A stretch of DNA of 64,000 nt, from assembly GCA_963768855.1 (NCBI GenBank), contig CAVYJM010000006.1, positions 480,001 to 544,000 on the forward strand. Reading direction: 5' to 3'. Under the pieces are notes generated by a model. It saw nothing but the letters and a program-made list of their open reading frames with translations, had not been told where the DNA came from and did no database searches. The translations under genes and the position numbers were made by a program. Each line of letters starts with the position of its first letter. Positions within the stretch are counted from its first letter, which is position 1. Shown here one piece after another: positions 15,851 through 58,820 of the stretch. Origin of the DNA: an uncultured Thermoplasmata archaeon (GTDB taxonomy: Archaea > Thermoplasmatota > Thermoplasmata > RBG-16-68-12).

Positions 15851-18052
<2,202 letters not shown>

Positions 18053-18155
18053 TCAGGGGTTCGGGTCGTTCCGCCACGGAGACGGCGACCCATCTCATGA
18101 CTCGGGATAAGCTTCGTGTTGTTCTCCCTCCGTACAGAAAGGGAAAGGGGCCGGG

Positions 18156-18680
18156 TCATTCGACCCGGACCTGCACGGGCTCGCGCGCGTGGTCCGGCTC
18201 CTTCTTGGGGAGGCGGACCTCGAGCACGCCGTCCTTCAGCTTCGCGTCCACCCGATCCGCGACGACTTCCGCGGGGAAGGCGATGCGGCGGTGGAAGGAC
18301 TCATACGCCCGTTCGCGGTACGCGTAGTCCCGTCCGTTCTCCTCTTTCTCGCGGCTCGTCTGCGCCGCCAGCTCGAGGCCGTCCGGGGTCACGCGGAGGT
18401 CAAGGTCCTCCTTCCGGACGCCGGGGAGTTCGGCCGTCAGGACGTACTCCGAGCCGCGGTCCGCGAGGTCCATGAGGGGCCGGCGAACCGCGAGTCCCGC
18501 CTCGCGGTCGAAGGGCGTGAGCGGGACCCCGAGCTTGCGTTCGAACTCCGTGCGGAGGTCGTCGAACCAGCGGTCCAAGTCCTGGAACCAATCCCACGAG
18601 TCGCGGGAGACCAGGCTCGGTCCCGACACGCCCTCCGCGGGCTTCGCAGCGAGATCCGTCTTCTTCTGCTTGCGCATCAT
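18156..18680 (-). CDS. Small heat shock protein Hsp20
   Basis: Alpha-crystallin domain (AELPGVRKEDL, YRERAYESFHR, AKLKDGVLEVRLPK); C-terminal VQV (IXI motif); GGAGG SD. Confidence 0.95.
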   Translation of the reverse strand: MMRKQKKTDLAAKPAEGVSGPSLVSRDSWDWFQDLDRWFDDLRTEFERKLGVPLTPFDREAGLAVRRPLMDLADRGSEYVLTAELPGVRKEDLDLRVTPDGLELAAQTSREKEENGRDYAYRERAYESFHRRIAFPAEVVADRVDAKLKDGVLEVRLPKKEPDHAREPVQVRVE

Positions 18681-18733
18681 GTTCGATTCCTCCTGGTGGA
18701 AGACCATTCTGACCAATAATGTGTTTGCAGTTC

Positions 18734-18750
18734 TATATAAACATTGTTAA
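18734..18750 (-). promoter_or_regulatory. hsp20 TATA box (TTTATATA) with adjacent imperfect palindrome
   Basis: TTAACAATGTTTATATA on the minus strand, about 55 nt upstream of the ATG, in an otherwise GC-rich context. Confidence 0.7.
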
Positions 18751-18857
18751 TTCGGTCCCCCCCGCGTACGTTGCCGCGGCTGGACAACCGCGGCCCTCAA
18801 AGTTCTTAGGCCGGAGGAATCCTGCCTCGCTGGTTGCCCGACCCCAGTCCCGACGAG

Positions 18858-19484
18858 ATGCACGGTCCGGTCCGGGAGACATCCCTGGAGGCTCCGTGCC
18901 CGGTCTGCGGCCACAGTCCCCTCTCCGTGCGGTCCCTGCAGATGAACCTGCCCTACTTCGGCGACGCCCTCCAGACCACTCTGGTCTGTCTCGCGTGCGG
19001 CTACCGCCACGGCGACCTGCTCCTGACGCGCCACGGGGAGCCGATGCGCGTCACCCTCCGCGTCGAGCGGCCTGACGCGCTCTCGGCCCGGGTCGCCCGC
19101 TCCTCCTCCGCGACAATCCGAATCCCGGAGCTGGGTGCTTCGATGGAGCCGGGGCCGCGCGCGGAGGCGTTCGTGAGCAACGTCGAAGGCGTCCTCCGCA
19201 AGTTCCTGGACGTCGTCCAGGGCCAGGAGGCGGTCGCCGATTCCCGCTCCCGGCGCGCGACCCTCGCCGCGGTCCGCCGTCGAATCGGCGGCATGATCGA
19301 GGGCAAGGAGCCGTTCACGTTCATCCTGGAGGACCCCACGGGGAACAGCGACGTGCAGCACGAGGATGCCGTGCGGGAAGTGCTTTCCAAAGAGGAGGCG
19401 GCGCGGCTCAAGTCCTCCGAGATGAGCATCGACCTGTCGGACCTCGCGCGGGCCGATGAGGACAGACCGGGGCGTCCCGCCTAG
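18858..19484 (+). CDS. ZPR1 zinc-finger domain protein (COG1779-like)
   Basis: CPVC...[42 protein letters not shown]. Confidence 0.93.
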
Positions 19485-19654
19485 AGTTCCCGCTTGACCG
19501 TGATCGGGATCGCCTCCGCGTTGAACTCCGTCCAAGCGATCTCGATGGGGTCCACCATACCCACGGGGACGTCCAGCACGATCGGCGCCCCCATGCTGAT
19601 CTGCAGGGCTCGCGCTCCGATGATACGGGCCTTCTCGAAACGGGTGTAACGCAA
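19481..19654 (-). CDS. rpoK: RNA polymerase subunit K (Rpo6)
   Basis: [22 protein letters not shown]; TTG start inferred. Confidence 0.95.
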
Positions 19655-19932
19655 GGGGCTCCCTCGCCAGGTGGCGGGCTGGAGGTCACCCTGGTGCTCG
19701 GGACAGGGCGGCCGTGGCGGCTCGGTAGTGATAGCATCTACTTCAATCTTCGCCATCGGTCCGGGGCGATGCGGCCCGGGCACGGCCCCTGGAGGGTAGC
19801 GGGGGTCGCGTAGCCTGGTGGTTCTGCGCGTAGAGAATCTCTCGTGAGAATTGGACGGGACGCTTCTTGACCCCCCAGGTCTACGACGGTTAGACTTCCC
19901 ACCCCCTTCGAGCCCATCCGCTAGAGGTTCCC

Positions 19933-20553
19933 ATGGATACCGAGACGTTCCGACAGGCCGCCACCCTCCTTTCCGGCGAGTACAGCCTCTCAATCCTGCG
20001 GGAGCTCCGGGACGGGGGGTGGCACCTCTCGAGCGAGGTCGCCCGGGCGCTGAACATCCACGTGTCCACGGCGTCCCGGTTCCTCCAGCGCCTCGCGGAG
20101 CTCGGCCTCGTGGAGCGGCGGCGGCACGACGCCCGGACGTCGGAGTACCGCGTCCGCTCCGCCCGGGTGTCCCTCGAGGTCGACCTGACGGACGACTCCG
20201 GCCCGTTGCGCGAGGCGGTCGACTTCTATGTCGCGTACTTCCAGTTCCTCTTCCAGGAGATTCGCCATCTCGGACTCCCCAAGATCGAGGGCGAGCTGGA
20301 GCACACCCTGGTCGCGGAACACCAGGAGCTCCGCTCCGTCGTGTTCGAGCAGATGATCGCGGGCAGCCAGGGCGGCATCGACCACCTGCGCGACCTCATG
20401 GCCGCGTTGCACCGAGACCTCTGGGACGTGTGCGCCCAGAGCCTCGGCCGGCCGACGGCCCGCAGGGTGTTCCAGACGGCCCTCCAGGAGGCGATCGGCG
20501 TCCACCCCGACCTCGCCCTCCGCTGCGGACTCGCGCGTCCCCTTGAGGCGTGA
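19933..20553 (+). CDS. ArsR-like winged-helix regulator with helical C-terminal domain
   Basis: SILRELR...[31 protein letters not shown]; GTGA overlap with the next gene. Confidence 0.85.
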
Positions 20554-21953
20554 TCCCCATGGTGCGGCTGGCCAGCGGGATTGAGGGATTCGACGACCTC
20601 GTGTCCGGGGGTCTCCCGGCCGACGCGAGCGTCATCTTGCAGGGCCCCCCCGGTCAGGAGAAGCTCGCATTCGCGCTCGCCTTCCTGGCGGAGGGGCTCC
20701 GCACGGGCGGGTCGGGCTTGGCGGTCGTTGCCTCCCAGTCCCCTGAATCATTCCTCCGGACGCTCCGCGGCCTCGGGGTCGACGTGGACCTCGTGCTCCG
20801 GGAGAACCGGCTCCGAGTCGTGGATTGGTATTCGTGGGGTGAGGAGACCGTCACGGAGGTCGAGGAACGCGGGGTCATCCTTCGGTCCTCGGTGGACCTG
20901 GCAAACGCCGGCGCTGCGGTGAGCCGGGCGATTGCGGGTCTTCCCGGAGAAGGCCCGAAGCGCGCGATCGTCGAAATGCTCTCTCCCGCATTGAACATCT
21001 ACGAGCTGAGTCAGGTCTTCGCGTTTGCTCAATCTACGAAGCGCAAGTTCGACCGCTTCCACCTCACCGCTCTGTTCCTCGTAGAGAAGGAGATGCACAC
21101 CGCGTCCGTCCTGTCGACACTCCACCAGCCGTTCGACGGGGTTGTCGAGATGGAGCGGACCCGGAGCGGGGACCGCATCCTGCGGAAGATCGGCGTGCTC
21201 CATTTGAGGGACACTCGCCCCCCATCCGACTTCGTCCCGTTCGAGTTCACGGAGCAAGGCATCCGCGTGGGCCTCCGGCCGCCTGCCCCCGTCTCAACTC
21301 CCCCCGTCGGTCCCTCGCCCGTGCCTCGTCCCACCCCCCCGCGGCCCCGTCCCCTGGAGGGAACCTCGAACCGCGTGCGCTTGATCATGGAGATCGCGCG
21401 GGAGCGGCTTCGCCAAGACCCCGAAGACTGCGACGCGCTGTTCTCCCTCGCCGCCGCCCTCGCGACCGTGGACGATCCGCGGGATGCGGTCCGGACTCTC
21501 GAGCGCCTAGAGACGATCAACCCGAACTACCCGGGACTCTGGGCGTTCGAGATGAAGCTCTTCGCCCGCCTGGGCGACGCGGAACGGTGGCAGCGGAGCC
21601 GGAAGAAGGCGCTCGCCGAGTCGCCCATTTCGGACAGCGTCGGGTCGCCCCCGTGTCCCTTCTGTCACGAACCTGTCTCCGCCGGGAGCGCGCAGTGCCC
21701 GCACTGCATGGCGGACCTCCGAGAGGAAACGGACATGCTCCACGGGCTCGAGAAGCTCGTCCGGGATACGGTTCAGGAAACGGTGCCGGAAGCGGGAGAG
21801 GCGAAACCGCCCGCCCCCCAAGCGCCGCCGGTCCCCTTGCGCCCGGTGCCACAGTCGCCGGCGCTGAGACCCGTCCCTCGAGCGAAGGGAATGACGAACG
21901 GCCTCGTCTTGGAGCGGCGGCCGGTGCGACCCGTCCCCGTCACCAAGCGCGGC

Positions 21954-22133
21954 CGGACGAATGGACTGACGAACGGTCTCGGCGGTCGTACGAACGGGTT
22001 GACGAACGGACTCCGCGATCGAACGAACGGACTAACGAACGGCCTGGGACGCACGAACGGCTTGACGAATGGGGTGGGCCGGACCAATGGTCTCACGAAC
22101 GGCGTGGGCCGGACGAACGGGCTCTCGAAGGGA
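21954..22133 (+). repeat. Coding tandem repeat, 6 x RTNGL(T/S)(N/K)G with 10-11 aa period
   Basis: Direct translation; synonymous codons vary between units. Confidence 0.95.
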
Positions 22134-24296
22134 CTCGAGAAGGCGGCGCGCTCCCGTGGATTCCTCGGGAACACCGGCATGCCGAAATGGCAGCGGGTCG
22201 CCCTGCCCGCCGCGCTCGTCGCCCTCTTGGTGCTCCTCCCGCTGGTCTTCCTGTGGAGCTCCCCGGTCACGCCGCGCCCCATCCAGATTGACGGCAACTT
22301 CGCCGACTGGACGGCCCAGTCCCTCGTCAGCGTCCCGTCGTCGGTATCGCCGAACCCGAACATCCAGATCGCCCGGATCGGGGTCGCCGACAACCTGGGC
22401 GACCTTGCCTCTACGTGGAGGTCACGGGCACGATCCTCGAGGGCGGCGGCCCCTCCCCCGGGCTCATGGACGCGGCCCGTATCTTCCTGGACACGGACAA
22501 TTCGAGTTCGACCGGATATCGGATCGGAGGCATCGGAGCAGATCGGCTCCTCGAGGCGTCGGGATACGGGGGTCATGTGCTGTCGAGCATCCTCTACGAG
22601 TTCGACGCGAATCGGGATGCCCGCGACTGGAGCGGCTGGATCAAGGGAACGCCGGTCCCAGCGGCCGCCTCCGGCTCCCGACTCGAGGCCCAGGCTTCGT
22701 GGATCGAGCTTGGAGGCGGGTCGGTCCCCGTCCGCGCGACGGTCGACACGCAGGCATGGGACGGCCAGACGGACACCTCCTCCCTGATCGTCTCACCCTC
22801 TGAGGGCACACTCGCGATCGACCAGGCGTCCGTCGCCCCGGCGGTCCTCTCCGGTGCGGACGTGCCTCTCCTGACCCTCAACGCCACGGCCCTCGGAAAG
22901 GGGGCGGCGTTCAACTCCCTCACCGTCGAGCTCCAGGGCACGGCCCCGTTCAGCGCCGTCTCCTCGCTCCGGCTCGTTGCCGCGGGCGGCATCGACTTGG
23001 TCCAGGCCAACCCCGCGGGCCGCGATGTGACCTTCCGGTTCGCGACGCAGACGATCGACCCCGCGACCCCGCGATCCTACACGATTCTCGGGGACGTCGC
23101 GGGTTCGAGCGGAGACACCTTCGGCGTGCGGGTCGCCTCGCCGGATGCGATCGGAATGTTGGATGGCGTCGCCTGCGTGCGCAGCCTGCCCTCGACCGCC
23201 TCGTTGAGCTACCTGGGTGCGATCCCGGGGGTGCCCCGAATCGACGGGGGGTTCGCCGAGTGGTCGTCCACGATTCCCGACGCGGTCGGCGAGGCGTCAA
23301 CCCGCGGGAACGCGAACATCGACGTGGCCCACCTCGGCGCCATCCCGAACGCCCCTTCGCTCTACCTCTATATGGATGTCTCGGGGCGAATGTTCGCAGG
23401 GACGAGCCAGCCGGATGCTCCCCAGCCCGCCCCCCTGACGAACGCGACGCCTGTGGCCGACACGGATCGCGACACGGTCCCGGATACCCTCGATCCAATG
23501 CCCTTCGACTTCAACAACGACGGCACCCCTGACGCGCGAACGAACGGGGACTACGACGGGGACGGCATCACCGACTACGGGTTCCCGGGCGGGACGGATG
23601 CCTGGCTGAACACCACGCTGCCCGCCAGCTTCCCCGCCCCGTACGCAGGGCTGAGCGTGAGCGTATACATCGGGCCGACGGTACGGCCGCCCGCGCTCGG
23701 CGAGGACGTCCTCCGGTTCTTCCTCGACATCGACAACCGCACGTCGACCGGCTTCTCGATTGGCGGAATCGGCGCGGACCGGCTCGTCGAGATCCACGGG
23801 AAGGACGCCCAGGTGTCCCAGTCCGCCCTGCTCGCGTTCACGGGCTCCTATCCGGGAGAATGGTCGTGGAGCGCGATCTCCCCCGTGACGGTCGCCACGG
23901 GCGCCCGCGCGGTCGAACTCGCGGTGAACCTTAGCGCATCCCGGGTCTACCTGGAGATGGGAGACTTCTGGGGCGGCGTGGACGCATCGAGCCCAGTTTC
24001 CCCCGCGACCCTGGCTGTCGCATCCCTCTCATCGATGACGTCGTCTTCGTTCCGCCAGGCCCCCGCCACATCGGCCTTGGCCGTTCCGTGGTACCAGGAT
24101 GGTCCCCAGGCGTCCGCGACCCTGATCGATCCTGGATCGAGCTCGTCGACCTCCCTCTACAACCAACAGCGGAAAGTGGTCCGCGCGCCCGACGTCGCCG
24201 GCCAGACCGGCCTGCGATGCGACGAACGCGGACGGATGCTGGTACGTCGTCCTGAACGATCAGCTGAGCGAGGACACGTTCACGTCCGCTCCATCC

Positions 24297-26110
24297 ACGG
24301 AGACCGTCGCCACCGGCACGAAGGTGTCCGGGACGTTCTTCCTCCGGCGTCGATTCGAGCAACAACGCGTACATCCAGTACCGCGAGGCGAACACAGGCA
24401 CCACGACGGTCACGGCCAAGAACCCGACCGCAGCGGGGACGAACCCGGTATGCGACTGGGCGACCTGCGCGAGCGGCGAGACCTCGGACAACGCATACAC
24501 GACCTCGAGCCAGAACAACCAGATACTTTCGTTCAAGTCCTTCGGCTTCGCCGTCCCGAGCGGGGCCGCGATTACCCAGGTCCGAATCGGCATCGAGGCG
24601 TTCCAGGCGGCGGGCGGAGACGACCAGATCACCGGCATCAAGCTTTCGTGGAACGCCGGGACGCCGAGCTGCAGCAACACGCTCGCGGGCGACCCGTTCG
24701 TCCCGGTGACTCCGAACGATCCAAACACGTACTCGTACTTCGACTCGACCGCCTGTACGGGCCACACTTGGGCTCAAGCCGACTTCGCCACCGGAACCGA
24801 CAACATCGCCTTCCAGGCCACGTACAAGAGGTCCGGAGGCGTGGCAACCGTGATCTCGGTCGATGCAGTCGTCGTCGAGGTCTCCTACGTTCCCGGCTCG
24901 TACCAGATGTCCGTCCGGTACGACTGGACCTCCGTCCCCGCAGGCGATGCGGTCACCCTGAACGTCGAGGCCTATCACGGCTCGGACGAGAACGTCAACA
25001 TTCAGGTCCTCACGCCTCCGTCCACCTGGAACACCCGGATCACGGTCACGGCCACGACCGATTCGAACCTGGCGCAGACCTACGCCCTCACCACGATCGA
25101 GTTCAACGCAGGCTCGCCCTCCATCCGCTTCGTCGACAGCCTCGGTGCGGACACGACCCAGACGGACCTCTGGGTCGATACGGCCGTCCTTGTGACCACC
25201 ATGACGAGGTCGCCCGGCACGGAGACGCTCACGACAGGTTCGCGCGTGAGCGGAACGTTCCCCACAGGCATCGGTGCCGCGGATGGCACTTACATCCAGT
25301 ACCGCGAGGCGAACACCGGGACCACAACGGTCACGGCCAAGAACCCGACGGCGGTGGGCACGGCCCCCGCGTGTACGGCCGGGGCATGTGCCAGCGGCGG
25401 AGCCTCGGACAACGCGTACGCCACGGTGAACAACAATCAACTCCTCTCCCTGAAGACTTTCGGCTTCGCCGTCCCGAGCGGGGCCACGATCACCCTAGTC
25501 CGCATCGGGATGGAAGCGTTCCAGGTTGCGGGCGGAGACGACCAGATCGCCGGGATCAAGCTGTCGTGGAACGCCGGCGCTTCCCCTTGTGGCAACACGC
25601 TCTCGGGCGATCCTTACACGCCGGTGAACACAGGCGACCCCAACACGTACCACTATTTCGACACGACGACGTGCACAGGGCACACGTGGGCCGCGGCGGA
25701 CTTCGCGAGCGGCACGGACAACGTCGCGTTCCAGGCCTCGTATTCGAAGGTCGGGTCCCCGACTCAGATCTCGGTGGACGCCGTAGCCGTGGAGGTCACA
25801 TACCTTCCGGCCACCTACCAGGTCTCCGTCCGGTATGACTGGACGGGCGTGCCGGCCGGGGACGCGCATACGCTGACCGTCCAAGGCTACCGCCAGGACG
25901 AGGACATCAGTGTTCAGGTGCTCACCCCGCCCTCCACCTGGACCACTCGGCTCACGATCTCCTCGGCGTCCAACGCTCTCTACACTTACCCCCTCACCAC
26001 GACGGAGTACAACGCCGGTTCGCCAGCGGTTCGGTTCGTCGACGCGGCCGGCGCAGACACCACGCAGTCCGACTTCTGGCTCGACCAAGTCGTCGTCACG
26101 ACCCGGACCG
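24297..26110 (+). repeat. Intragenic tandem duplication of a ~307-aa extracellular module
   Basis: Shared YIQYREANTGTTTVTAKNPTA, FGFAVPSGA, GGDDQI.GIKLSWNAG, CTGHTWA.ADFA.GTDN, QVLTPPSTW.TR; copies start at 24297 and 25219. Confidence 0.92.
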
Positions 26111-27165
26111 TGTGGGACCGCGTGATCCTGATGCGCAGCGCGGACGTGGGAGGTACGATCTGGGGATCCCAGGTCATCCTGGCCTCCGGGCGGACCGGGG
26201 ACGATCCGCTCCTCCACGCGTACGATTCCTCGGTACCGGCCCTCGCAATGGACTCGGCTGGCTTCCTCCACATCGTCTGGGTCTCCTCCGCGAGCCCGGG
26301 CAACCAGGCCACGATGGACCGGGTCCGGTATGTGAAGAGCACGGTGGCCTACCCGAACCAGGGCCAGATCGCGCTCGCGTCCACCTGGCAGGCTGTGACC
26401 TCGGTGGACGCTGCGAACCCGGGCACCATGCCGACCGTCTCGACGGACAGCTCGAACTACCCGCACATCGCGTGGAGCGGCTCGAAGACGAGCGGATCCG
26501 TCTTCTACAAGAACCAGTACGGGGGCTCGTGGCGGCCGACGGTCACCTGGGGGACGACCTACACCGGGATCTCCGTGGACGTATCGCCGACGACCAACTA
26601 CGTGAGCCTTGGGCGCTACTACGAGGCGGCCCCGAACGAGATTCAGTATACGGCGTGCAAGAACGTGGCCGTGAGCAACTGCGACGCATCCGCGGAGTTC
26701 ACCAAGTGGGACGGGACCGCAGGATACGACACGGTGGCGACCGGGGTCGAGAGCCACGTCTATCCGAGCCTCGCGACCACGTACGATGCGAACGGGGATC
26801 TCTGGATCGCGTACGCCAAGGACGTGGACGGGAGCACCCGCGCGATCTACGCGCGCCTCCTCGACTACCCGAGCGCAGGGTTTGCGGCCCCGGAGACGGT
26901 GGACGCCCTGACGGGCACGATCTTCACGCGGCCCGTGATCGGCGTGGACAGCTCGAACCGCGTCCACGCGCTCTACGTGGCCACGGCGGGGCCCCAGCTG
27001 TACTACAAGATGCGGTCGGGCGGAGTATGGGGATCGCGCCAGCTGATGGACGCATCCTCCGACGATCCGTCGATCATGGTCCGCGCCCCCAACGACGCGA
27101 CGTACGGATCCACGCCCGGGGCGATCTACTGGAAGTCGACCACATCCGGGACGTACTTCGTGGCG

Positions 27166-27300
27166 ATCCCCGAGTTCGAGTCGGTCGCCCTGCCGATCGT
27201 CGCCATCCTGGGTCTCGTCCTCGTGCTCCGCCGCAGGGCTTCGAGAAAGACCGGCTCCTGCGATGCGGGTGCGGAGACGTCCCGCAACCGACCGCGCTAG
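27166..27300 (+). other. PEF-CTERM archaeosortase-type sorting signal
   Basis: IPEF + TM helix (VALPIVAILGLVLVL) + RRR basic cluster at the C-terminus. Confidence 0.88.
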
Positions 27301-27612
27301 AGCCCGAGGACGGGATGTCCCTCGGCATTAACAGCGCGTTTCATGGCCAAGCTCTGCTCACTCGACGCCCTGACCCATGCCGAGGGATTGTTGGACGCCG
27401 CGTTGTCCCCCTGTCACGGTGCGCCCCGTCCCGGGGCTATCGAGGAGGGACCCATGCGGCGTTCTCTCCCGGCTTGCATCGCGCGTCACGGTTCGGCGCG
27501 ACCATACGCGGGAGCAAGCTATCCATGGACCGGCGAGGGGATAAACGTTCGCCCCGTCCGCACGTTTAATTAGGCCCCGCCCCTTCGCACGCCCTCAGCC
27601 TTCGGGAACCCC

Positions 27613-28083
27613 ATGGACGACCTGCGCTACGCGATCGCTCTCCTCTTCAAGAGGAAGGGCCGCGACGAGCTCACGGAGCGGGAGTTCGTCCTGTCGGCCT
27701 CGATGGACCTCCGCTGGTTCCCGCCCCGCGACGCCCAGCGCCTCCTGCAGCTCGGCCTCGCGACGAGCCTCCTCGAGTCCCACGGCGGAAACATCCGCCC
27801 GGCCTTCCCGATCGACTCGGTCGAAGTCCCGCGGGACTTCGTCCCGACCGCGAAGACCCTCGAGGTCGCCACACCCGCCTCGGAGGACACGTTCCTCCGC
27901 ATCGTGGACGCGATCGTGACGCACACGAAGTCGGATCGACGGGGCGTGATCGCCTCCGTGAACGCGGTCCAGGAGAAGATGGACGTCGACGTGGAAGTCG
28001 CGGCGCTCGTCGCGGCTCGCCAGGCCGGCCTCGATGTCACCCCGTTCCTCGCCCCGGTGAAGGCCCACCTCGGGCTTCCCTGA
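27613..28083 (+). CDS. DUF2240-family archaeal protein
   Basis: LFKRKG..L...EFVLSASMDLRWF.P.DA..L signature; TTTAATTA TATA upstream. Confidence 0.8.
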   Translation: MDDLRYAIALLFKRKGRDELTEREFVLSASMDLRWFPPRDAQRLLQLGLATSLLESHGGNIRPAFPIDSVEVPRDFVPTAKTLEVATPASEDTFLRIVDAIVTHTKSDRRGVIASVNAVQEKMDVDVEVAALVAARQAGLDVTPFLAPVKAHLGLP

Positions 28084-28581
28084 TCACTCGTCCTTGTCCT
28101 GCATCTTGATCAGGTCGCCCAGGGTCAGGCTTCCCGAGGCGGCCTGCTTCTTCATCGCGACGGGCTCCACCTTCTCCTTGAGCTTGATGCCGAGCGTGTG
28201 CTCGAGCTTCCGCACGAGGCTGTCCCCCGGGGAGATCGCACCGGACTCGAGCTGGGAGATGACGCTGACCTTCTCGTTGATCTTCGCCCCGAGGTCCGCC
28301 TGCTTCCATCCCCTCTCCTCGCGCGCGCGACGTATGCGCTGCGGGAAGTCCTCCGCCAGTTCCATCTCCCCGGCCTCGGCGTACACGTCGCGGGGTGTCT
28401 GACGCCGTTTCCGGGCCTCGAGCCGCTGGGCGATGACCGGGGGCATGTTCCCGCGTCGGACAACGGGAGTGGAGACCTCGTCCCCGAACTTCGCGCAGTT
28501 GCTGCAGACGGCCAGGATCGTGCTCTCGATGGCCACGTTCTTCGTGTGGGGAACGTCCGCGCCGCACAATTCGCAGATCAC
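28084..28581 (-). CDS. mbf1: Archaeal multiprotein bridging factor 1 (Zn ribbon + HTH)
   Basis: CELCG...CSNC.KFG; IRRAREERGWKQADLG; ESG...P; TLGDL C-terminal motif. Confidence 0.93.
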   Translation of the reverse strand: MICELCGADVPHTKNVAIESTILAVCSNCAKFGDEVSTPVVRRGNMPPVIAQRLEARKRRQTPRDVYAEAGEMELAEDFPQRIRRAREERGWKQADLGAKINEKVSVISQLESGAISPGDSLVRKLEHTLGIKLKEKVEPVAMKKQAASGSLTLGDLIKMQDKDE

Positions 28582-28600
28582 GATTTCAAGTCCGCAACCG

Positions 28601-28626
28601 CTAAATAAAAGGTGTTGGGTATATAG
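28601..28626. promoter_or_regulatory. Divergent TATA boxes for mbf1 (minus) and pan (plus)
   Basis: CTAAATAAAA and GTATATAG, AT-rich boxes 22 nt and 36 nt from the two start codons. Confidence 0.7.
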
Positions 28627-28661
28627 GCTTCGTCCTCCGCCGGCCCACCGGACGAGATTGC

Positions 28662-29873
28662 ATGGACGAAGAACAGATCCGAGAATTCTCGGAGAAACTC
28701 TCTGAGCGAATCGCCTCGCTCGAAGATCGGAACGACAAACTCCTGGAGACCGCGCGCCGCGTGGAGGGTGAGAAGCGGTACGTGGAGACGGAGCTGATCC
28801 GGCTCCAGAAGGAGATCAAGAGGCTCAAGCAGGAGCTCGACCGCCTGAAGAGCCCGCCCTTGATTATCGGGAACATCCGCGATGTCCTCGCGGACGGCCG
28901 GGTCGTGGTGAAGTCGTCGACCGGTCCGGACTTCATCGTGAACGCGGCGGACTACATCACGAAGGAGAACCTGCTCGTCGGCGCGCGGGTCGCGCTCAAC
29001 AAGCAGACGCTCGCCGTGATGGGCGTGCTGCCGCCGTCCTACGATCCGATCGTCACGGGCGCGGAGATCATCGACAAGCCCGACGTCACCTACACGGAGA
29101 TCGGCGGCCTCGACCAGCAGATCCTCGAGCTCAAGGAGGCGGTGGAGGACCCGCTCCTCAAGCCGGACCTCTATCGAAAGGTGGGCATCGAGCCGCCGAA
29201 GGGCGTTCTCCTCGTCGGTCCGCCGGGCACGGGCAAGACGCTCCTCGCCAAGGCGGTCGCGAACCGCACGAAGGCCACGTTCATCCGGTTCGTCGGTTCC
29301 GAGCTGGTCCAGAAATACATCGGCGAGGGCGCGCGTCTCGTGCGGGAGCTGTTCGAGCTGGCCCGGAAGAAGTCGCCCTCGATCGTGTTCATCGACGAAC
29401 TGGACAGCGTGGGCGCGAAGCGCCTCGAGGTCGCGACGTCCGGGGACCGGGAGGTCCAGCGGACCCTGATGCAGTTGCTCGCGGAGCTCGACGGGTTCAA
29501 CCCGCTCGGCGAGGTCAAGATCATCGGGGCCACGAACCGTCCGGACATCCTCGACGACGCGCTCCTCCGGCCGGGCCGCTTCGACCGCATCATCGAGATT
29601 CCGATCCCCAGCTACGAGGGCCGCCTGTCCATCTTCAAGATCCATACGCACAAGATGAGCATCGGGACCGAGGTCGACTTCGACACCCTCGCCCAGCGCA
29701 CGGACGGCGCGACGGGCGCGGACCTCAAGGCGATGTGCACGGAGGCGGGCATGTTCGCGATCCGGGAAGACCGGGACTCCGTGACCATGACCGACTTCGA
29801 GCTCGCGGTGGACAAGGTCCTCGGGGAGAGCCGCGTGCGGCACGAGACCGCGAGCGGCGCGATGTACGCGTGA
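28662..29873 (+). CDS. pan: Proteasome-activating nucleotidase
   Basis: N-terminal coiled coil + OB fold, [35 protein letters not shown]-terminal HbYX (MYA). Confidence 0.97.
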
Positions 29874-29954
29874 AACCCGCATCCGCAATGTGCGACGCCC
29901 TCCGAGCGTCGCACCATAACCTTTATTCGGACCTCTAGATTAGCCCGGCCGGTC

Positions 29955-30830
29955 ATGGTTCGTTCCCTAGCCAGGGACGACTCCGCCCTCAGCGACTGGA
30001 TCGTCCTGCTGGCCCTCGTCGTCGCTGCCGCTGTCGTCCTCGGCGCCTACTACGTCGTCTTCACGCCGACGAGACCCGGCTCGCCCCCGCTCGCCCAGCT
30101 CGGCGACACGGTCTACATCGACTACATCGGCACCTTCCAGAATGACAACCTCGTGTTCGACACGAGCATCCAGTCCGTCGCGGCGGACAACGCGACCTAT
30201 CCGAAGGCGTTCAGCTTCAGCTGGCGGGCCACGTACTCGAACCTGCAGTTCGTGATCGGCGACGGGTCCGTGGTCCAGGGCTTCGACCAGGGCGTCCGAG
30301 GCCTGGCCGCGGGACAGACCACGACGGTCGTCGTGCCCCAGGACATGGGGTACGGCCCCGCGGATGCGAGCAAGATCCACACCTACCCGCTCGTCCAGAC
30401 CTTCCCCATCCGGGTCACGATGAACGAGACCGCCTTCACGAGCTACTACGGCGAGACCGCGGTCTCCGCCACGAACGTCTCCGATCCCATCTACGGATGG
30501 AGTGTGACGGTCGCGATCCTGAATGGCCTCGTTGTCGTGACGAACAGCCCCTATCCCTCCCAGGTCATCCATCCGTACGGATTGTGGAAGGCGACGGTCC
30601 TCAGCGTCGATGATGCGGCGAACAACGGCACGGGCCTCATCACGATCCAGAACCGCATCGACCCGACCCTCGTGGACAAGATCGGCGGGACGCTTTCGAG
30701 CGGGGGCACGTTCTACCTGTCCGCCGTGGACCTCAACGCAGGGACGTATACGCTGAACTTCAACCGACAGGTCGTCGGCCGGACCTTGGTGTTCCAGGTG
30801 ACCCTCGTTCGACTCTCGAGCCTCGCCTGA
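29955..30830 (+). CDS. Membrane-anchored FKBP-type peptidyl-prolyl isomerase with large insertion
   Basis: N-terminal TM helix; GDTVYIDYIG..FDTS; G.G.VVQGFD.GV.GL..G; split C-terminal strand NRQVVGRTLVFQV. Confidence 0.85.
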   Translation: MVRSLARDDSALSDWIVLLALVVAAAVVLGAYYVVFTPTRPGSPPLAQLGDTVYIDYIGTFQNDNLVFDTSIQSVAADNATYPKAFSFSWRATYSNLQFVIGDGSVVQGFDQGVRGLAAGQTTTVVVPQDMGYGPADASKIHTYPLVQTFPIRVTMNETAFTSYYGETAVSATNVSDPIYGWSVTVAILNGLVVVTNSPYPSQVIHPYGLWKATVLSVDDAANNGTGLITIQNRIDPTLVDKIGGTLSSGGTFYLSAVDLNAGTYTLNFNRQVVGRTLVFQVTLVRLSSLA

Positions 30831-30841
30831 GGGCCGCCGCC

Positions 30842-31462
30842 ATGGCCTCCGTGGCGGACTGGCTCTCCGGGCTGTTCGCATTCCTCGGTCCCGCGGGCAC
30901 CCTCCTCGCGCTCTTCTTCGTCTTCGTGATCGACGCGGCGGTCATCCCCGCCCTCCCCGAGCTTGCCGTCGTGCTGAGTTTCCTCTACCGCGCGCCCGGC
31001 GAGGACCCGTTCACCTGGGCCCTGCTCCTGCTCGGGATGGCGATCGGCGGGGAGGCCGTCGGCAACACGCTGATGTACCTCTGGGTCCGGAAGCTCGTGG
31101 TCGACCGGGGCCATCTTCCGAAGTTCGTGAACCGGTTGATGAAGGGCTGGACCCAGCTCCTCCTGGTCCGGGACGAGCGCATCATCCTGCTGAACCGGGT
31201 CGCCCCCGTCGTCCCGTTCGTCGGGGCGTTCATCGCGGTCGTCGGCTGGAACTACACGAAGTCCCTCGCGTACATCGTCCTCGGCGCGGCGGTGAAGTAC
31301 AGCCTGTTGATCGTCCTCGTCGGCTACCTCGGCGTGGCGTACGACCCGAACACGGCGACGCTGATCACGGTCGGAGCCATCGTGGTGCTCGTGGCCGCAT
31401 CCCTCGGCGCATCGATCCTCTTGCGACGTCGGATGGCCGCCCCGCCCTCCGGGTCGTCCTAG
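30842..31462 (+). CDS. DedA/VTT-domain membrane protein
   Basis: IDAAVIPALPE, GGEAVGNTLMY..., ILLNRVAPVVP; multiple TM segments. Confidence 0.75.
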   Translation: MASVADWLSGLFAFLGPAGTLLALFFVFVIDAAVIPALPELAVVLSFLYRAPGEDPFTWALLLLGMAIGGEAVGNTLMYLWVRKLVVDRGHLPKFVNRLMKGWTQLLLVRDERIILLNRVAPVVPFVGAFIAVVGWNYTKSLAYIVLGAAVKYSLLIVLVGYLGVAYDPNTATLITVGAIVVLVAASLGASILLRRRMAAPPSGSS

Positions 31463-33506: not shown

Positions 33507-34652
33507 TCACGCCGTCAGGAGGCGTTCGTACAGGTGCTCGAGGCGACGCGTGCACTTTGCGACGGAGAAGGGGAGCGCGCTCTCCCGCGCCGCGTCCCGC
33601 ATCGCGTCGCGGTGGGCGAGGCACTGGAGGATGGCGTCCGCGCATCCCGCCACGTCGTTCGGGTCGAACAGGAAACCGTTCTCCCCCTCGTGGACGAACT
33701 CGGGGATCGCGCGGAAGTTCGCGCCTGCGACGGGCCGCCCGGCCGCGAGCGCCTCGAGGATGACGAGGCCCTGCGTCTCGAACTTGGAGGCGATCGCGAA
33801 GGCGTCGGCGGCCGCGTAGTACTTCGGCAGGTCCGCGTCGGGAACAAAGCCCGTGAAGATCACGTCTCCGGAGAGATCCATGTGCCGCACGAGCTCGTAG
33901 TACCGCTCGAGGTACGGGCCTGAGCCGACGACGAGCAGCTTCGTGTCCGGGTTTGCCTCCTTGATGCGCGGGAACGCGTGGATCAGCGTGTGCAGGTTCT
34001 TCTCCGGCGCGACGCGGCCCACGTGGAGGATGACGTCGCTGCCGTTGAGCCCCCACTTGGTCCGGATGCTCCGCCCCGAGACCGCGGGGGAGAAGCGGTC
34101 CGGGTCCACGCCGGTCGGGATGACGTCCGTGATGGCGGCCTCGGGCGAGAGCTCGAGGATTTCGTTCAAGATCGCGCGGCTCGGGACCACGACGCCCGTC
34201 GACTTCCTCAGGAAGACCCGGAGGTAGAGGCGCAGCCCGCGTTCGAGCATGTGGAGATTGATGCCGAAGGGCGAGTAGAACGGGAGCGTGTCCTGGATCA
34301 TCGTGTGGAAGGTCTGGACGCTCGGGATCTTCGCCTGCCAGGAGGCCCAAAGGCCCTTGATCCCGACCGTGCCGACGCCATGGATGTGGATCACGTCGAT
34401 GCCGAGTTCCTTGACCTGGTCCACCTCGCGGCCCGGGAACATCGCGAGCCGGTAGCCGGGATAGTGGCGGAGCTCGTGGGCGCGCACGAAGATCGTGTTC
34501 CGCTCGCGTTTCACGTGGCGCCTCGGATCCGCGGGGGCGAACACAACGACCTCGTGGCCGTCCGCCTCGAGCTGGTGGCGGGTCGTCAGGACGGACGTCA
34601 CCACGCCGTCGATCGTGGGCAGGTAGCTGTCCGTGAACAGCGCGATCTTCAC
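33507..34652 (-). CDS. GT4 family glycosyltransferase
   Basis: MKIALFTDSYLPTIDGV, HVGRVAPEKN, S..ETQGLVILEALAAG.PV; GTG overlaps the thiD stop. Confidence 0.93.
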   Translation of the reverse strand: MKIALFTDSYLPTIDGVVTSVLTTRHQLEADGHEVVVFAPADPRRHVKRERNTIFVRAHELRHYPGYRLAMFPGREVDQVKELGIDVIHIHGVGTVGIKGLWASWQAKIPSVQTFHTMIQDTLPFYSPFGINLHMLERGLRLYLRVFLRKSTGVVVPSRAILNEILELSPEAAITDVIPTGVDPDRFSPAVSGRSIRTKWGLNGSDVILHVGRVAPEKNLHTLIHAFPRIKEANPDTKLLVVGSGPYLERYYELVRHMDLSGDVIFTGFVPDADLPKYYAAADAFAIASKFETQGLVILEALAAGRPVAGANFRAIPEFVHEGENGFLFDPNDVAGCADAILQCLAHRDAMRDAARESALPFSVAKCTRRLEHLYERLLTA

Positions 34653-35923
34653 GGGAGGCCTCCGCGCACGAGACGGCGGGCCTTCCTCAGGACCCGCTCC
34701 GGATCTTCGCCGAGGACTCGAATCGTCGTTCCACTGCCTCCGTTCCTCGCGTCCACGAGGACGTCCGGCGCCGTCCCCGCCTCCACGATCTCGCGCTCCA
34801 TCCAGCCCGCCCCGACCGTCCTGCCCGGACCACGGTGGCGGCCCAGGGTCACGATCCCGAGGCGCCGGTAGAGGAGCCGGTTGGCATTTTTGGGCGGGTA
34901 CTTTAAGGTTGCCGAGGCGCGGAGGGTCGGGTTGACATGGAGGACCGCAAGCATCGCCGAGGCGGTGTCGGCCCGCGCACCGAACTCCGCGGAGCGGGAC
35001 CGTTCCCTCCATGCGCAGAGGTCGGCGGCCGCCATCGCGCCAGGGAGCGCGAACACCAGTTCCGTGCCTTCCCGGGGCTTGAGGCGCGGCGGGATGGCTC
35101 TTGACAATGCGGGTCCGACGCGGGTCACCTCAAGCCACACCGCGTAGCGGTCGGGCTGGACGTGGGAGTTGATGATCTCGACGCCGCGGCCCGCGCGGTA
35201 GGACTCGAGGAAGCCCGAGGCGACCCGCCGCCGCGCGGATTCCACGGCCCTCCCCAGCCGCTGGCCCTGGGCCAGGTACGCCGCGACTGAGGCGGCGAGC
35301 GTGCAGCCGGCGCCGTGCAGTTCCTTCGGGTAGCGGAAGCTCCTCAGCCGCCGGACGCTCCGGCCGTCGTAGAGCACGTCGACGAGCTCGCCGGCCACGT
35401 GTCCTCCCTTGACGAGGACTGCGCGGGGGCCGAGGCTGTGGAGCCGGCGGGCGGCCTTCTCCATGTCCTCGAGCCCGCGGACTGGGAAGCCTGCGAGGCG
35501 CTCCGCCTCCGGACGGTTGGGAGTGAGGAGATCCGCCCGGGGGAGGAGCCGTCTCACGAGGGCATCCTTGAAATCGTCCCGTTCGAGGCGCGCGCCCACC
35601 GTCGCGACCATGACCGGGTCCACGACGAGCGGGAAGCCCTTGCCTCGCAGCTCGTCCGCGACCGTCTCGACGATCTCCGCGGAGTACAGCATCCCCGTCT
35701 TCGCGCCCCGCACCTCAAAGTCGTCGAGCACCGCGCGGAGTTGCGCTCGGATCTCCGCAGGCGGGAGAGGGAAGATGGACGTCACGGCCCGCGTGTTCTG
35801 CGCCGTGACGCACGTGATCACGGACGTCCCGTGGACCCCGACCGCCGCGAACGACTTGAGGTCCGCCTGGATCCCGGCGCCGCCGCCGGAATCGCTGCCG
35901 GCAATCGTCAGGGCGGTCTTCAT
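34649..35923 (-). CDS. thiD: HMP/HMP-P kinase ThiD fused to a degenerate ThiN-like domain
   Basis: LTIAGSDSGGGAGIQADLK, TAQNT, KTGML, VVDPVMVA, LLTPN..EA, HGAGCT. Confidence 0.93.
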   Translation of the reverse strand: MKTALTIAGSDSGGGAGIQADLKSFAAVGVHGTSVITCVTAQNTRAVTSIFPLPPAEIRAQLRAVLDDFEVRGAKTGMLYSAEIVETVADELRGKGFPLVVDPVMVATVGARLERDDFKDALVRRLLPRADLLTPNRPEAERLAGFPVRGLEDMEKAARRLHSLGPRAVLVKGGHVAGELVDVLYDGRSVRRLRSFRYPKELHGAGCTLAASVAAYLAQGQRLGRAVESARRRVASGFLESYRAGRGVEIINSHVQPDRYAVWLEVTRVGPALSRAIPPRLKPREGTELVFALPGAMAAADLCAWRERSRSAEFGARADTASAMLAVLHVNPTLRASATLKYPPKNANRLLYRRLGIVTLGRHRGPGRTVGAGWMEREIVEAGTAPDVLVDARNGGSGTTIRVLGEDPERVLRKARRLVRGGLP

Positions 35924-36030
35924 CACCGCGACGATGAGGCAGCTCCGCTTAAGGATGCCGCCGCGGGTCGCCTCGTCTCCGAGGCACGCGGCCGTATCGT
36001 TAAATAGAACGTGGCTCATCCGAACGTCTC

Positions 36031-54952: not shown

Positions 54953-55669
54953 GTGGAGAGGACCCGGATCAAGACCTACATACGCGGCTTCGATGAGGCG
55001 GTCGGAGGCGGACTGCCGGAAGGGTACGTCGTCCTCATCTCCGGGGCCCCGGGCACGATGAAGTCGTCGCTCGCCTTCTCGATCCTCTACCAGAACGCGC
55101 TCCGAGAGGGCAAGCGGGGCGCCTACTTCACCCTCGAGCAGAGCAAGGACCTGCTCCTGGAGCACATGGCCTCCATGGGGATGGCGGACGACAAGGCGTG
55201 GGAGAACCTCGTCATGATGGACATGGGGAACATCCGCAAGAACCTCAACTACCTCCAGGGCCGTGGCACGTGGCTCGAGCTCTTCAAGATGTACTGCAAC
55301 AACGTGATGAAGTCGGAGAAGATCTCCTGCCTCGTCGTCGATTCGCTGGACGTGCTCGAGACGATGGCGAAGATGCAGGACCGGCGGTCCGACCTGTATT
55401 TCCTGTTCGAATGGCTCCGCGACCTGGGGCCGCTGACCCTCCTCCTCTCCGAGCAGCCCCTTGAGACGGGCGGCGGCCGCCAGCCGGACGAGGCCTACCT
55501 CGCGGACGGGATCATCCAGCTCGAGATGCACGCCGCCTCGGACCTCTTCGTCCAGCGCCGTGTGCGGGTCGCGAAGCTGCGCGCGACGAGACACAACACG
55601 GGCTACTACGCCCTGACCTACGAGGACGGCGGGTTCGAGGTCGCCCGGGCCGTCTCGGGCTCCGGCTGA
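54953..55669 (+). CDS. KaiC/RAD55-like RecA-superfamily ATPase (single domain)
   Basis: TYIRGFDEAVGGGLP, GAPGTMKSS Walker A, YFTLEQ, LVVDSL, YLADGII, KLRATRH. Confidence 0.92.
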   Translation: MERTRIKTYIRGFDEAVGGGLPEGYVVLISGAPGTMKSSLAFSILYQNALREGKRGAYFTLEQSKDLLLEHMASMGMADDKAWENLVMMDMGNIRKNLNYLQGRGTWLELFKMYCNNVMKSEKISCLVVDSLDVLETMAKMQDRRSDLYFLFEWLRDLGPLTLLLSEQPLETGGGRQPDEAYLADGIIQLEMHAASDLFVQRRVRVAKLRATRHNTGYYALTYEDGGFEVARAVSGSG

Positions 55670-55701
55670 GCGGCGAACGTATCCTCCGAGAGAACGGGAC
55701 C

Positions 55702-55715
55702 GAAGGACTTTATAC
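55702..55715 (+). promoter_or_regulatory. BRE/TATA promoter of the histidine kinase operon
   Basis: GAAGGA-CTTTATAC; same pattern as other promoters in the window. Confidence 0.6.
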
Positions 55716-55781
55716 CCGGCCCGTCGGATACGAAAGAGACCCGTCGGGCTACCCTGCGGGTTCCACGAGACCGCAGACCCC

Positions 55782-58700: not shown

Positions 58701-58820
58701 CTGGGGCTCGCGGTCTGCCGGAACATCCTGGCAGCCCACGGAGGCGAAATTCATTTCACCACGACCCCCGGTAAAGGGACCACGTTCACGGTCGTGCTTC
58801 CCCAGAGGGAGAACCCATGA
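55782..58820 (+). CDS. Cytoplasmic multi-sensor histidine kinase (PAS-PAS-GAF-PAS-PAS-PAS-HisKA-HATPase)
   Basis: H box AHEINTPL, N box NLLRNAFEA, G1 DTGPGIP, F box LFQPFVTTK, G2 GTGLGL; repeated PAS/PAC motifs; no TM segment. Confidence 0.95.
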   Translation: MQDLEESERRFRLALSQAPVIAWTTDVDLRFTWGVGTALADVQLDAKIFAHQRVADFFPGEGPSAPVEQHRRALAGESVRYEFEWMGRWFDVHLEPLRDADGVIVGVIGMALDLTERRKAEEALRLSEDRFVLLGRATSDMAWDWDLETDSIWRNENLQIIFGYSAEDMEPAGSWWELRMHPDDRGRVMKSLREAIAGEGSFWSEEYRWQRKDGSYAVILDRGYVIRDEQGTPVRMIGSTMDITKHRREEKIREAIYKISEAGATAKDLPAFYAEVHKIVGQLMPAQNFYIALHDPNTDLLSFPYFLDEQEEPPESYKAGRGLTEYVLRSGKPFYASTEGYERLVATGEVVRVGPMSIDWVGVPLVAKGKTLGALVLQTYAEGVRYGEEERDVLSFVSEQIAMAIERKRAEESLRDEEGRYRLLFESNPTPMWVYDLEDLRFLAVNDMAVEHYGYSREEFLSMTIKDIRLPEDVEALVASVMGPRQVIEHSGVWRHRTKDGRLIDVEITSHTLEFSGRRAVLVMANDITKRKHDQEALVAAEGKYRGLVEQSLVGTYIIQGDRFVYVNPKLADIFGYTPDEVVRSKVVADLVAPEDRAKVLENIRTRLERETKSLQYRFQGVRKDGSRIAVEVHGSEVEFNGAPAIIGSLLDITQREQAEDRLRRSETRFRTLFEAAADAILLVNAKGTILDANPTAGLIVEKEREFLLGANLEDFLMPEDLERARAYLRRCFKGNSPPERFEVAIALPRGVRKSLAVRSQLVSEPGSDPYVEMIVRDVTEQIEMQRRLLASERLASVGQMAAYIAHEINTPLANISLLAAASKRRTQDPEVRERLEKIDAQRRQAASIIADLLGFSKHRDIEPVEVDLRTILVTAVDQIEPYRSPNVVLVQDYGETPVPAYVDPLQIQEVFVNLLRNAFEATTRGSVTVRLEARSGYRIVTVTDTGPGIPAEVQGRLFQPFVTTKRNKGGTGLGLAVCRNILAAHGGEIHFTTTPGKGTTFTVVLPQRENP

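Follow-up and report, generated by a model that had tools for sequence, protein, structure and literature searches.

Among the putative signalling proteins of archaea, KaiC-like ATPases are, to our knowledge, the most expanded group, and almost none of them has a known input. Makarova, Galperin and Koonin are said to have presented inactivated KaiC domains in 2017 (mBio 8:e01959-17) as predicted archaeal signalling modules. Here we analyse a giant gene in a 64,000-nucleotide stretch of DNA (the window; positions 480,001 to 544,000 of contig CAVYJM010000006.1, assembly GCA_963768855.1) from an uncultured Thermoplasmata archaeon. The gene encodes a predicted membrane protein that begins with a degenerate KaiC-like domain and ends in a large extracellular array. 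The proposal of inactivated KaiC-like (iKaiC) domains and KaiC signalling hubs in archaea is cited in two further studies (PMC5847659, PMC6393860). Like the giant family, iKaiC proteins have a KaiC fold that has lost its catalytic motifs and is joined or adjacent to putative input or output modules such as winged helix-turn-helix (wHTH) domains, and both groups are archaea-specific and predicted from genomics only. The difference is that here a type-II membrane protein of 1,800-3,900 amino acids (aa) has the dead KaiC as its head in the cytoplasm, together with a mosaic, carbohydrate-binding-like ectodomain and a PEF-CTERM tail. By a definition taken in part from PMC5847659, the family belongs among the iKaiC proteins, since its degenerate KaiC fold is tied to input and output domains through fusion or gene order. 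Predicted inactivated-KaiC signalling modules are already known; the giant membrane architecture and its operon are undescribed in the searchable literature, in which we found no account of this architecture, of the stalk of TNG repeats, transmembrane (TM) helix and CBM9-like modules, or of an operon of KaiC, wHTH and giant-protein genes (the 2017 iKaiC paper itself lay outside that search).

Two other systems bear comparison. ArlH (FlaH) of the archaellum motor is also a single-domain KaiC-like protein that acts as a nucleotide-dependent partner of a membrane machine; it is a soluble protein whose Walker A motif is canonical. The KaiC-like domain of the giant protein gave a weak NCBIfam match to ArlH (E 0.002), but its motif is degenerate, the domain is membrane-tethered and there is no archaellum context. 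Anti-sigma factors and bacterial regulators of the ToxR/CadC type show a possible functional likeness, as in these an extracytoplasmic sensor is joined by one TM helix to a cytoplasmic domain controlling a DNA-binding protein encoded next to it. However, there is no sequence or fold relationship: the partner here is an ArsR/MarR-like wHTH protein and not a sigma factor, the cytoplasmic module is KaiC-like, and the ectodomain is more than 10 times larger.

Domain order and predicted topology of the giant protein

An earlier reading made from the letters of the window (the sequence-only reading) had proposed a single chain of ~2,249 aa, recovered after correcting three indels. In that reading a KaiC/RAD55-like domain with degenerate Walker A and B motifs, TPR-like helices, a zinc ribbon, a Pro linker and TNG repeats precede a TM helix, and two IDG modules, Asp-rich motifs, two ~307-aa repeats, a propeller-like region and a PEF-CTERM signal follow it. 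Each of these parts was found again in our analysis (Table 1). The length and the three indels were right, because the four frame pieces join into a corrected reading of ~2,246 codons plus three break codons with zero in-frame stops. The coding signal in the G+C content of third codon positions (GC3) is kept within each piece, and beyond each break the out-of-frame continuation is Arg-rich nonsense. The window is 64-71% G+C across 18000-30000.

Residues 9-241 match the KaiC family PF06745 (E 2.8e-24; 86.2 bits against a cut-off of 26.6) and solved KaiC chains match the same domain at E 4.5e-25, which confirmed its kinship; archaeal KaiC models of NCBIfam match it with scores below their cut-offs. 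Aligned with solved KaiC, the Walker A sequence GTGKT is replaced by GQEKL, which departs from GxxxxGK[ST]; the catalytic FEESP aligns with ASQSP, so that the glutamate pair is lost; and the Walker B sequence VIDS aligns with IVEMLS, in which the aspartate has become glutamate. The changes are family-wide (GK[ST] to EK[LDE], catalytic EE to S-x, Walker B D to E). Since the P-loop reads GPxGxEK[L/D/E] in all ten of the ten aligned members, the KaiC-like domain of the family appears to be a conserved, catalytically dead pseudo-ATPase and not the product of decay in one copy.

The modules between this domain and the membrane gave weak Pfam matches in the window protein, but they are conserved in the family alignment. 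Several relatives have clear TPR matches in Pfam, the four cysteines C369, C372, C383 and C386 (CPxC...CPxC) are nearly invariant, and the Pro-rich linkers follow the zinc ribbon in order with conservation at the peptide level. The TNG repeats are likewise conserved as peptides in all family members and in the split paralogue described below.

Only two hydrophobic segments occur in the giant protein, residues 550-571, a position that is hydrophobic in homologues too, and the C-terminal helix. With ~549 cytoplasmic residues ahead of the only internal hydrophobic segment, the protein lacks an N-terminal signal peptide that would direct export. Six K/R fall within the 25 residues on the N side of the TM helix (+6 charge), in line with the positive-inside rule; K+R amounts to 12.9% ahead of the helix vs 4.8% after it, S+T to 12% vs 21%, and N-glycosylation sequons number 0 vs 6. 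Based on the contrasts in charge, K+R and sequons, the topology is predicted to place the KaiC-like N-terminal part inside and ~1,650 residues outside, on opposite sides of the membrane, in agreement with the sequence-only reading.

The TM helix, seen in hydropathy and flanking charge, has its counterpart at the far end in a PEF-CTERM signal that scores above the cut-off of TIGR03024 (27.6 bits vs 23) and recurs at the tail of homologues. Tails of this type occur in only about three open reading frames (ORFs) of the genome, the giant protein and a second, split-type giant described below among them. The genome has one gene of the exosortase/archaeosortase family (TIGR04178, 50.4 bits, above cut-off), whose best specific match is ArtC (TIGR03762, 45.4 bits, below the cut-off of 100). 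Haft et al. reportedly described PGF-CTERM/ArtA and PEF-CTERM/ArtC archaeosortase substrates in 2012. The giant protein shares with such substrates a C-terminal tripartite signal above cut-off, in a genome that has an archaeosortase-family gene. They typically have an N-terminal signal peptide, whereas in the giant protein a long N-terminal stretch, predicted to be cytoplasmic, comes before an internal signal anchor; the chain would therefore be held at both ends, and the family is a predicted case of an archaeosortase substrate anchored in this way.

Searches of Pfam and NCBIfam across 1,580 ectodomain residues found nothing except PEF-CTERM, and the ectodomain was examined through its internal similarities and through structure models. 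The two IDG modules (IDGxFxDW ... FLDxDNxxSTGxxIGGIGADRL) are related to one another (42% in the core, E 6e-14). The AlphaFold2 (AF2) model of module 2, built with 34 homologous modules, gave VIA-align Z scores of 10.7 with CBM9 (1i82_A), 10.3 with Sas6 (7uwu_A), 10.2 with the gamma subunit of ethylbenzene dehydrogenase (2ivf_C) and 9.0 with the C-domain of glucodextranase (1ulv_A), against a background of at most 7.8 for unrelated Ig-like chains, which places it with the CBM9/DOMON-like folds; Foldseek returned the same top families as weak matches. The two long repeats, ~300 aa each, align over 284 aa (E 4.6e-137). In the ~350 residues before the tail, the AF2 model (mean pLDDT 59.9, core 70-90) resembles a beta-propeller, and its Foldseek matches in the PDB are seven-bladed Photorhabdus lectins and GH33 sialidases (E ~1e-9, probability 1.0, target-normalised TM-score ~0.58, rmsd 7-13 Å). 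An atlas lead pointed to a BNR_2 / PEFG-CTERM cluster (score 0.76), and the Pfam search gave no BNR match in this region. The likeness of the ectodomain modules to CBM9, DOMON and the glucodextranase C-domain, to PLL/PHL lectins and to GH33 sialidases lies at the level of the fold, with sequence identity of only 10-17%. From these models we predict an ectodomain of two sandwiches of the CBM9/DOMON type, a pair of 300-aa repeats and a propeller resembling those of lectins or sialidases. For the surface layer named in the sequence-only reading no support was found.

Table 1. Features of the giant gene and of the gene directly before it, in window coordinates.
Feature	Position	Strand	Basis or remark
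Winged-helix (ArsR/MarR-like) regulator, 206 aa	19933..20553	+	Pfam HTH_20/MarR, E ~3e-7
Giant gene, ~2,249 codons	20550..27300	+	Four frame pieces, three 1-nt indels
Frame piece 1	20550-22409	+	620 aa
Frame piece 2	22412-24211	+	600 aa
Frame piece 3	24213-24338	+	42 aa
Frame piece 4	24346-27297	+	984 aa
KaiC/RecA-like domain, predicted inactive	20574..21272	+	PF06745 match; Walker A GPPGQEKL; EE to SQ; Walker B IVEML
TPR-like helical region	21400..21640	+	Weak TPR_14 match; block conserved in family alignment
Cys4 zinc ribbon, CPFC...CPHC	21654..21707	+	Weak DZR_2 match
(G)RTNGLTNG repeat array	21891..22133	+	Cytoplasmic side (predicted), directly ahead of TM helix
TM helix, signal anchor, N-terminus inside (predicted)	22197..22262 (residues 550-571)	+	Hydropathy, flanking charge
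CBM9/DOMON-like module 1 (IDGNFADW ... FLDTDNSSSTGYRIGGIGADRL)	22272..22802	+	Fold inferred from module 2
Break 1	22409/22410	+	1-nt deletion vs G009 orthologue; inside CBM9/DOMON-like module 1
CBM9/DOMON-like module 2	23213..24061	+	AF2 model, pLDDT 76.5; VIA-align
Asp-rich insert, ~95 aa, calcium-binding-like	23459-23582	+	Inside module 2; Asp-rich motifs at 23459-23566
Break 2	24211..24213 (~24212)	+	Shift from frame 2 to frame 0 (gain of one base or loss of two), close to GGCCTGC
Repeat copy 1, ~300 aa	24213..25197	+	66.5% identity to copy 2
Break 3	24338..24345 (~24340)	+	Frame 0 to frame 1; 1-nt insertion vs repeat copy 2
Repeat copy 2	25267..26103	+	66.5% identity to copy 1
Beta-propeller region (predicted)	26116..27150	+	AF2 model and Foldseek
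PEF-CTERM sorting signal (IPEF, hydrophobic helix, RRR)	27166..27237	+	TIGR03024

Relatives, gene order and the two halves of the gene

A search of 40 relatives with the N-terminal 620 aa identified uninterrupted frames of 1,800-3,900 aa, and frames of 1,829-3,914 aa with the same ends are present in G009, G007, G005, G033, G034 (three in tandem) and G036. All of the nine relatives' genes that were fetched have the same head and eight have the PEF-type tail, the ninth (G028) running off its contig. The order is kept in the relatives, from dead KaiC-like domain, TPR, zinc ribbon and TNG repeats through one TM helix and CBM9/DOMON-like modules to a variable ectodomain and PEF-CTERM. An assembly chimera, or read-through of separate KaiC-like and surface-protein genes, might be suspected behind such a fusion, as the genome of the window and its relatives do have a split version with the two as separate genes and break 1 follows soon after the TM helix. 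This suspicion is countered by the orthologous uninterrupted frames in many independent assemblies, by the nucleotide alignment with G009, which passes straight through break 1 with a single-base gap, and by the split-type KaiC being a different, active paralogue (22-28% identity). We regard an artefact as excluded for practical purposes. The single-chain fusion of the sequence-only reading is upheld by uninterrupted orthologues and paralogues in many relatives, and the orthologues do not encode the two parts as separate genes.

A scan of one genome per species found 54 loci, all in metagenome-assembled genomes (MAGs) labelled Thermoplasmata, Methanomassiliicoccales-type, "Methanobacteriota" or "Euryarchaeota", and their source, where stated, was soil, sediment or groundwater. 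In the protein database at least 208 clusters longer than 1,085 aa were found, all from Thermoplasmata-type MAGs and all with generic names ("ATPase domain-containing", "KaiC/GvpD/RAD55 family", "hypothetical"). The genome of the window has a single fused copy. Elsewhere in the phylum a related dead-KaiC domain is largely confined to one other family, where the frames that hold it are 500-750 aa long. A variant in another family of the phylum, G115 (L099:4358-9451, minus strand), is a 1,698-aa frame with the dead KaiC in mid-protein and the P-loop reduced to AASGAESE; ~700 aa that look largely helical by eye lie ahead of it, and a coiled-coil-like stretch, TNG repeats, a TM helix, two CBM9-like modules and PEF-CTERM come after. 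At G034:C2 (L015:3084-19474, L016:474-8072), three members of 3,873, 1,591 and 2,533 aa stand head to tail, each with its own dead-KaiC head, a local expansion.

The gene order around the family was informative. The stop of the wHTH regulator gene overlaps the GTG start of the giant gene, and in nearly all loci (~55 of those fetched) the same gene, at 27-94% identity, lies directly upstream of the giant gene. The regulator has a helical C-terminal domain of ~120 aa, and its profile matches in the PDB are wHTH proteins of the ArsR family. In eight more distant loci a gene for a 230-aa KaiC-like protein stands between the two, its end abutting the start of the giant gene, and the protein has intact GPAGSGK[ST], LEE and DSLS motifs, as expected of the active type. 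A split edition of the system lies 14-20 kb before the window start in the same genome (G000), at C6:460315-466337 (L079:3315-9337). Its first gene encodes a putatively active KaiC-like protein of 289 aa (GRSGAGKT), the second a double-wHTH protein of 231 aa, and the third an intact surface protein of 1,459 aa with zinc ribbons, TPR, TNG repeats, a TM helix and CBM9-like modules, together with LTD, two DUF11 domains and a PEL-type C-terminal anchor. This three-gene order recurs in nine of the 12 relatives' loci tested, including genomes without the fused form. The proteins are fused in one paralogue and adjacent in the other, a classic signature of working together, which speaks for a physical link between them. 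A Ras-family small GTPase gene (PF00071, E 5.5e-33; L079:10676-11332) was also seen, ~1.3 kb downstream of the split-type surface-protein gene.

The sequence-only reading had coupled the giant protein to KaiC-family signalling and had named as one possible partner the KaiC-like ATPase encoded at 54953-55669. The coupling was strengthened by the upstream wHTH gene, the inserted active KaiC and the split operon; signalling itself is something that we infer. The proposed partner failed: the KaiC at 54953-55669 is 30% identical to the small KaiC of the operon type, ranks seventh in the genome, and was rejected as nothing ties it to the giant gene. This gene (238 aa) stands directly before the genes for a histidine kinase of 1,012 aa with multiple PAS/GAF domains and for a response regulator whose output domain is DUF7347, and the region at 54953-59887 of the window looks like a separate KaiC-plus-two-component cluster.

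The two halves of the giant gene have evolved in a decoupled manner. Synteny with G009 holds at 80% nucleotide identity over 19684-22694 and at 88% over the downstream flank block at 27312-30984, and in G009 the 4.6 kb between these syntenic flanks are replaced by a different ectodomain. At the protein level, the cytoplasmic part is 86% identical to that of G009 and the ectodomain 29.5%; the corresponding values are 79% vs 34% for P0006, 58% vs 49% for G005 and 46% vs 41.5% for G034a. Members of the family in other genomes contain pieces of the propeller and of the repeats at 55-70% identity, and further members swap in FG-GAP/VCBS, LTD, Sortilin/BNR, DUF2341 or Laminin_G modules. From these alignments, the ectodomain appears to be a mosaic, with the cytoplasmic half stable across the family. 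The family thereby shows domain shuffling of surface proteins in abundant soil and sediment Thermoplasmata that are without cultured members.

Function of the family and state of the window copy

Based on the domain order and the operon partners, we put at about an even chance the reading that the giant protein is a receptor or scaffold by which an ectodomain that binds glycans or surfaces is coupled to a transcriptional circuit of KaiC and wHTH proteins. The protein would be inserted N-terminus-in through its single TM helix, with the PEF-CTERM signal at the far end available to an archaeosortase. Its gene would form one transcription unit with that of the dedicated winged-helix regulator, joined in some members of the family by that of the active small KaiC ATPase. 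When the variable ectodomain binds a glycan, a surface or another cell, the clustering or conformation of the dead-KaiC/TPR platform may change, possibly through oligomerisation, and the platform may then bind or release the wHTH regulator, plus the active KaiC-like ATPase where present. Altered transcription would be the end result. The fused dead KaiC with its fast-evolving extracellular array, together with the paralogous three-gene operon, would offer a testable wiring of surface protein, KaiC and wHTH regulator.

Several points weigh against this coupling. The active KaiC of the operon type has no closely related orthologue in the genome of the window, where the best match reaches 36% identity, and the wHTH gene beside the giant gene could simply be its transcriptional regulator. 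Carbohydrate-binding-module-like and propeller folds are no proof of ligand binding. The fused form is missing in six of the 40 relatives, and the family is therefore dispensable. In addition, the window copy carries three frameshifts, which, if real, would permit only a 745-aa truncated product.

The same architecture would also suit a structural anchor, in which dead KaiC domains form a ring that gathers the chains to build a spike or lattice on the surface, the active KaiC helps with assembly or quality control, and the wHTH protein does no more than regulate the expression of a costly product. KaiC-family domains such as those of KaiC and ArlH typically hexamerise, the giant protein has a predicted anchor at either end, and the split-type giant is widely conserved. 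Of the PEF-CTERM-type ORFs in the genome, no more than about three, two are the giants, as might be expected of major envelope components. However, an anchor of this kind leaves unexplained why a DNA-binding gene is coupled by overlapping stop and start across ~55 loci and why the cytoplasmic tail carries adaptor-type TPR and zinc-ribbon modules, and a mosaic, poorly conserved ectodomain would be unusual for a lattice-forming protein. We consider a structural role, the main rival reading, rather unlikely. Rather less probable still, in our view, is that the receptor or scaffold is more narrowly a polymorphic surface recognition receptor for kin, partner cells or viruses, whose ectodomain cassettes are shuffled between lineages and whose contacts are reported through the dead-KaiC/TPR platform to the wHTH protein and the KaiC ATPase. 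If true, this would be an archaea-specific, KaiC-based transmembrane signalling pathway free of histidine kinases.

The receptor or scaffold reading concerns the family, and the individual window copy matters less than the family because it is interrupted. At break 1 the window has GCC-TCTAC where G009 has GCCTTCTAC (GCC-TC vs GCCTTC); the surroundings of break 2 read GGCCTGCGAT; and at break 3 the window has ACGTTCTTCC vs ACGTTC-CCC in the gene's own second repeat. For breaks 2 and 3 no close ectodomain homologue was found by which to date or verify them, the best being ~60% identical and beginning past the breaks, and P0006 being 34% identical there. Programmed frameshifting was rejected, as the three shifts are separate and differ in direction, and homologues are read without any.

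A crude composition-based screen of the genome returned at most 56 frameshift candidates in 2.87 Mb, a count used as an upper bound only, as antisense shadows interfere and sensitivity is roughly one in three. Three of the four candidates checked were real splits, namely a P-type ATPase and two large surface proteins; the fourth, C18 (near 6.2 kb), was unconvincing as a frameshift. At a generous rate of one per 19 kb, three indels in 6.75 kb have a Poisson P of ~0.006, and the indels are therefore concentrated in the giant gene.

Such a cluster of three independent 1-nt indels, in a family that is dispensable, is what would be expected if the window copy were a recently dead pseudogene, leaving at most a 745-aa membrane-anchored stub. 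The ~2,246 corrected codons are nevertheless without an in-frame stop, the GC3 signal persists in each piece, and the wHTH gene ahead of the giant gene is unbroken, with 94% identity to its G009 counterpart; any decay would on these grounds be very recent. The bin also has 7.7% contamination or heterogeneity, and two of the three other verified frameshifts lie in large surface-protein genes too, as consensus errors in strain-variable regions would give. We hold death of the gene to be as probable as its survival, and the three frameshifts fit a recent pseudogene or consensus errors in a strain-variable, repeat-bearing region equally well. In either case the copy is one that is annotated in pieces.

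Other interrupted genes and the surrounding locus

The split P-type cation ATPase lies at G000:C6:428028-430563 (L084:528-3063, minus strand). One of its frames holds E1-E2 ATPase and Cation_ATPase_N together with a portion of the hydrolase domain, and a second frame holds Cation_ATPase_C, through a frameshift or a consensus error. The two apparently frameshifted surface-protein genes lie at G000:C17 near 58.6 kb and G000:C15 near 58.6 kb (L082:642-4801, L081:759-4785). One of them has an archaeal pilin N-terminus and FG-GAP repeats, and the other has HYR domains, with an 'ELWxTDGT' repeat on both sides of the break. Within the window, at 33507-36028 (minus strand), the coding signal changes frame at ~34680-35090 without an obvious gene boundary, which may be a frameshift or two overlapping ORFs.

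PADLOC assigned neither the giant protein nor the KaiC proteins to a defence system, and for the wHTH protein it matched only the HTH part of Csa3/CARF models. The flanks of the locus, at 15851-19484 and 27613-30830 of the window, carry proteostasis genes, namely those for a CDC48-type AAA ATPase, an Hsp20, a ZPR1-like protein, a DUF2240 protein, an HTH_3 protein, a proteasome-activating AAA ATPase of the PAN type and an FKBP.

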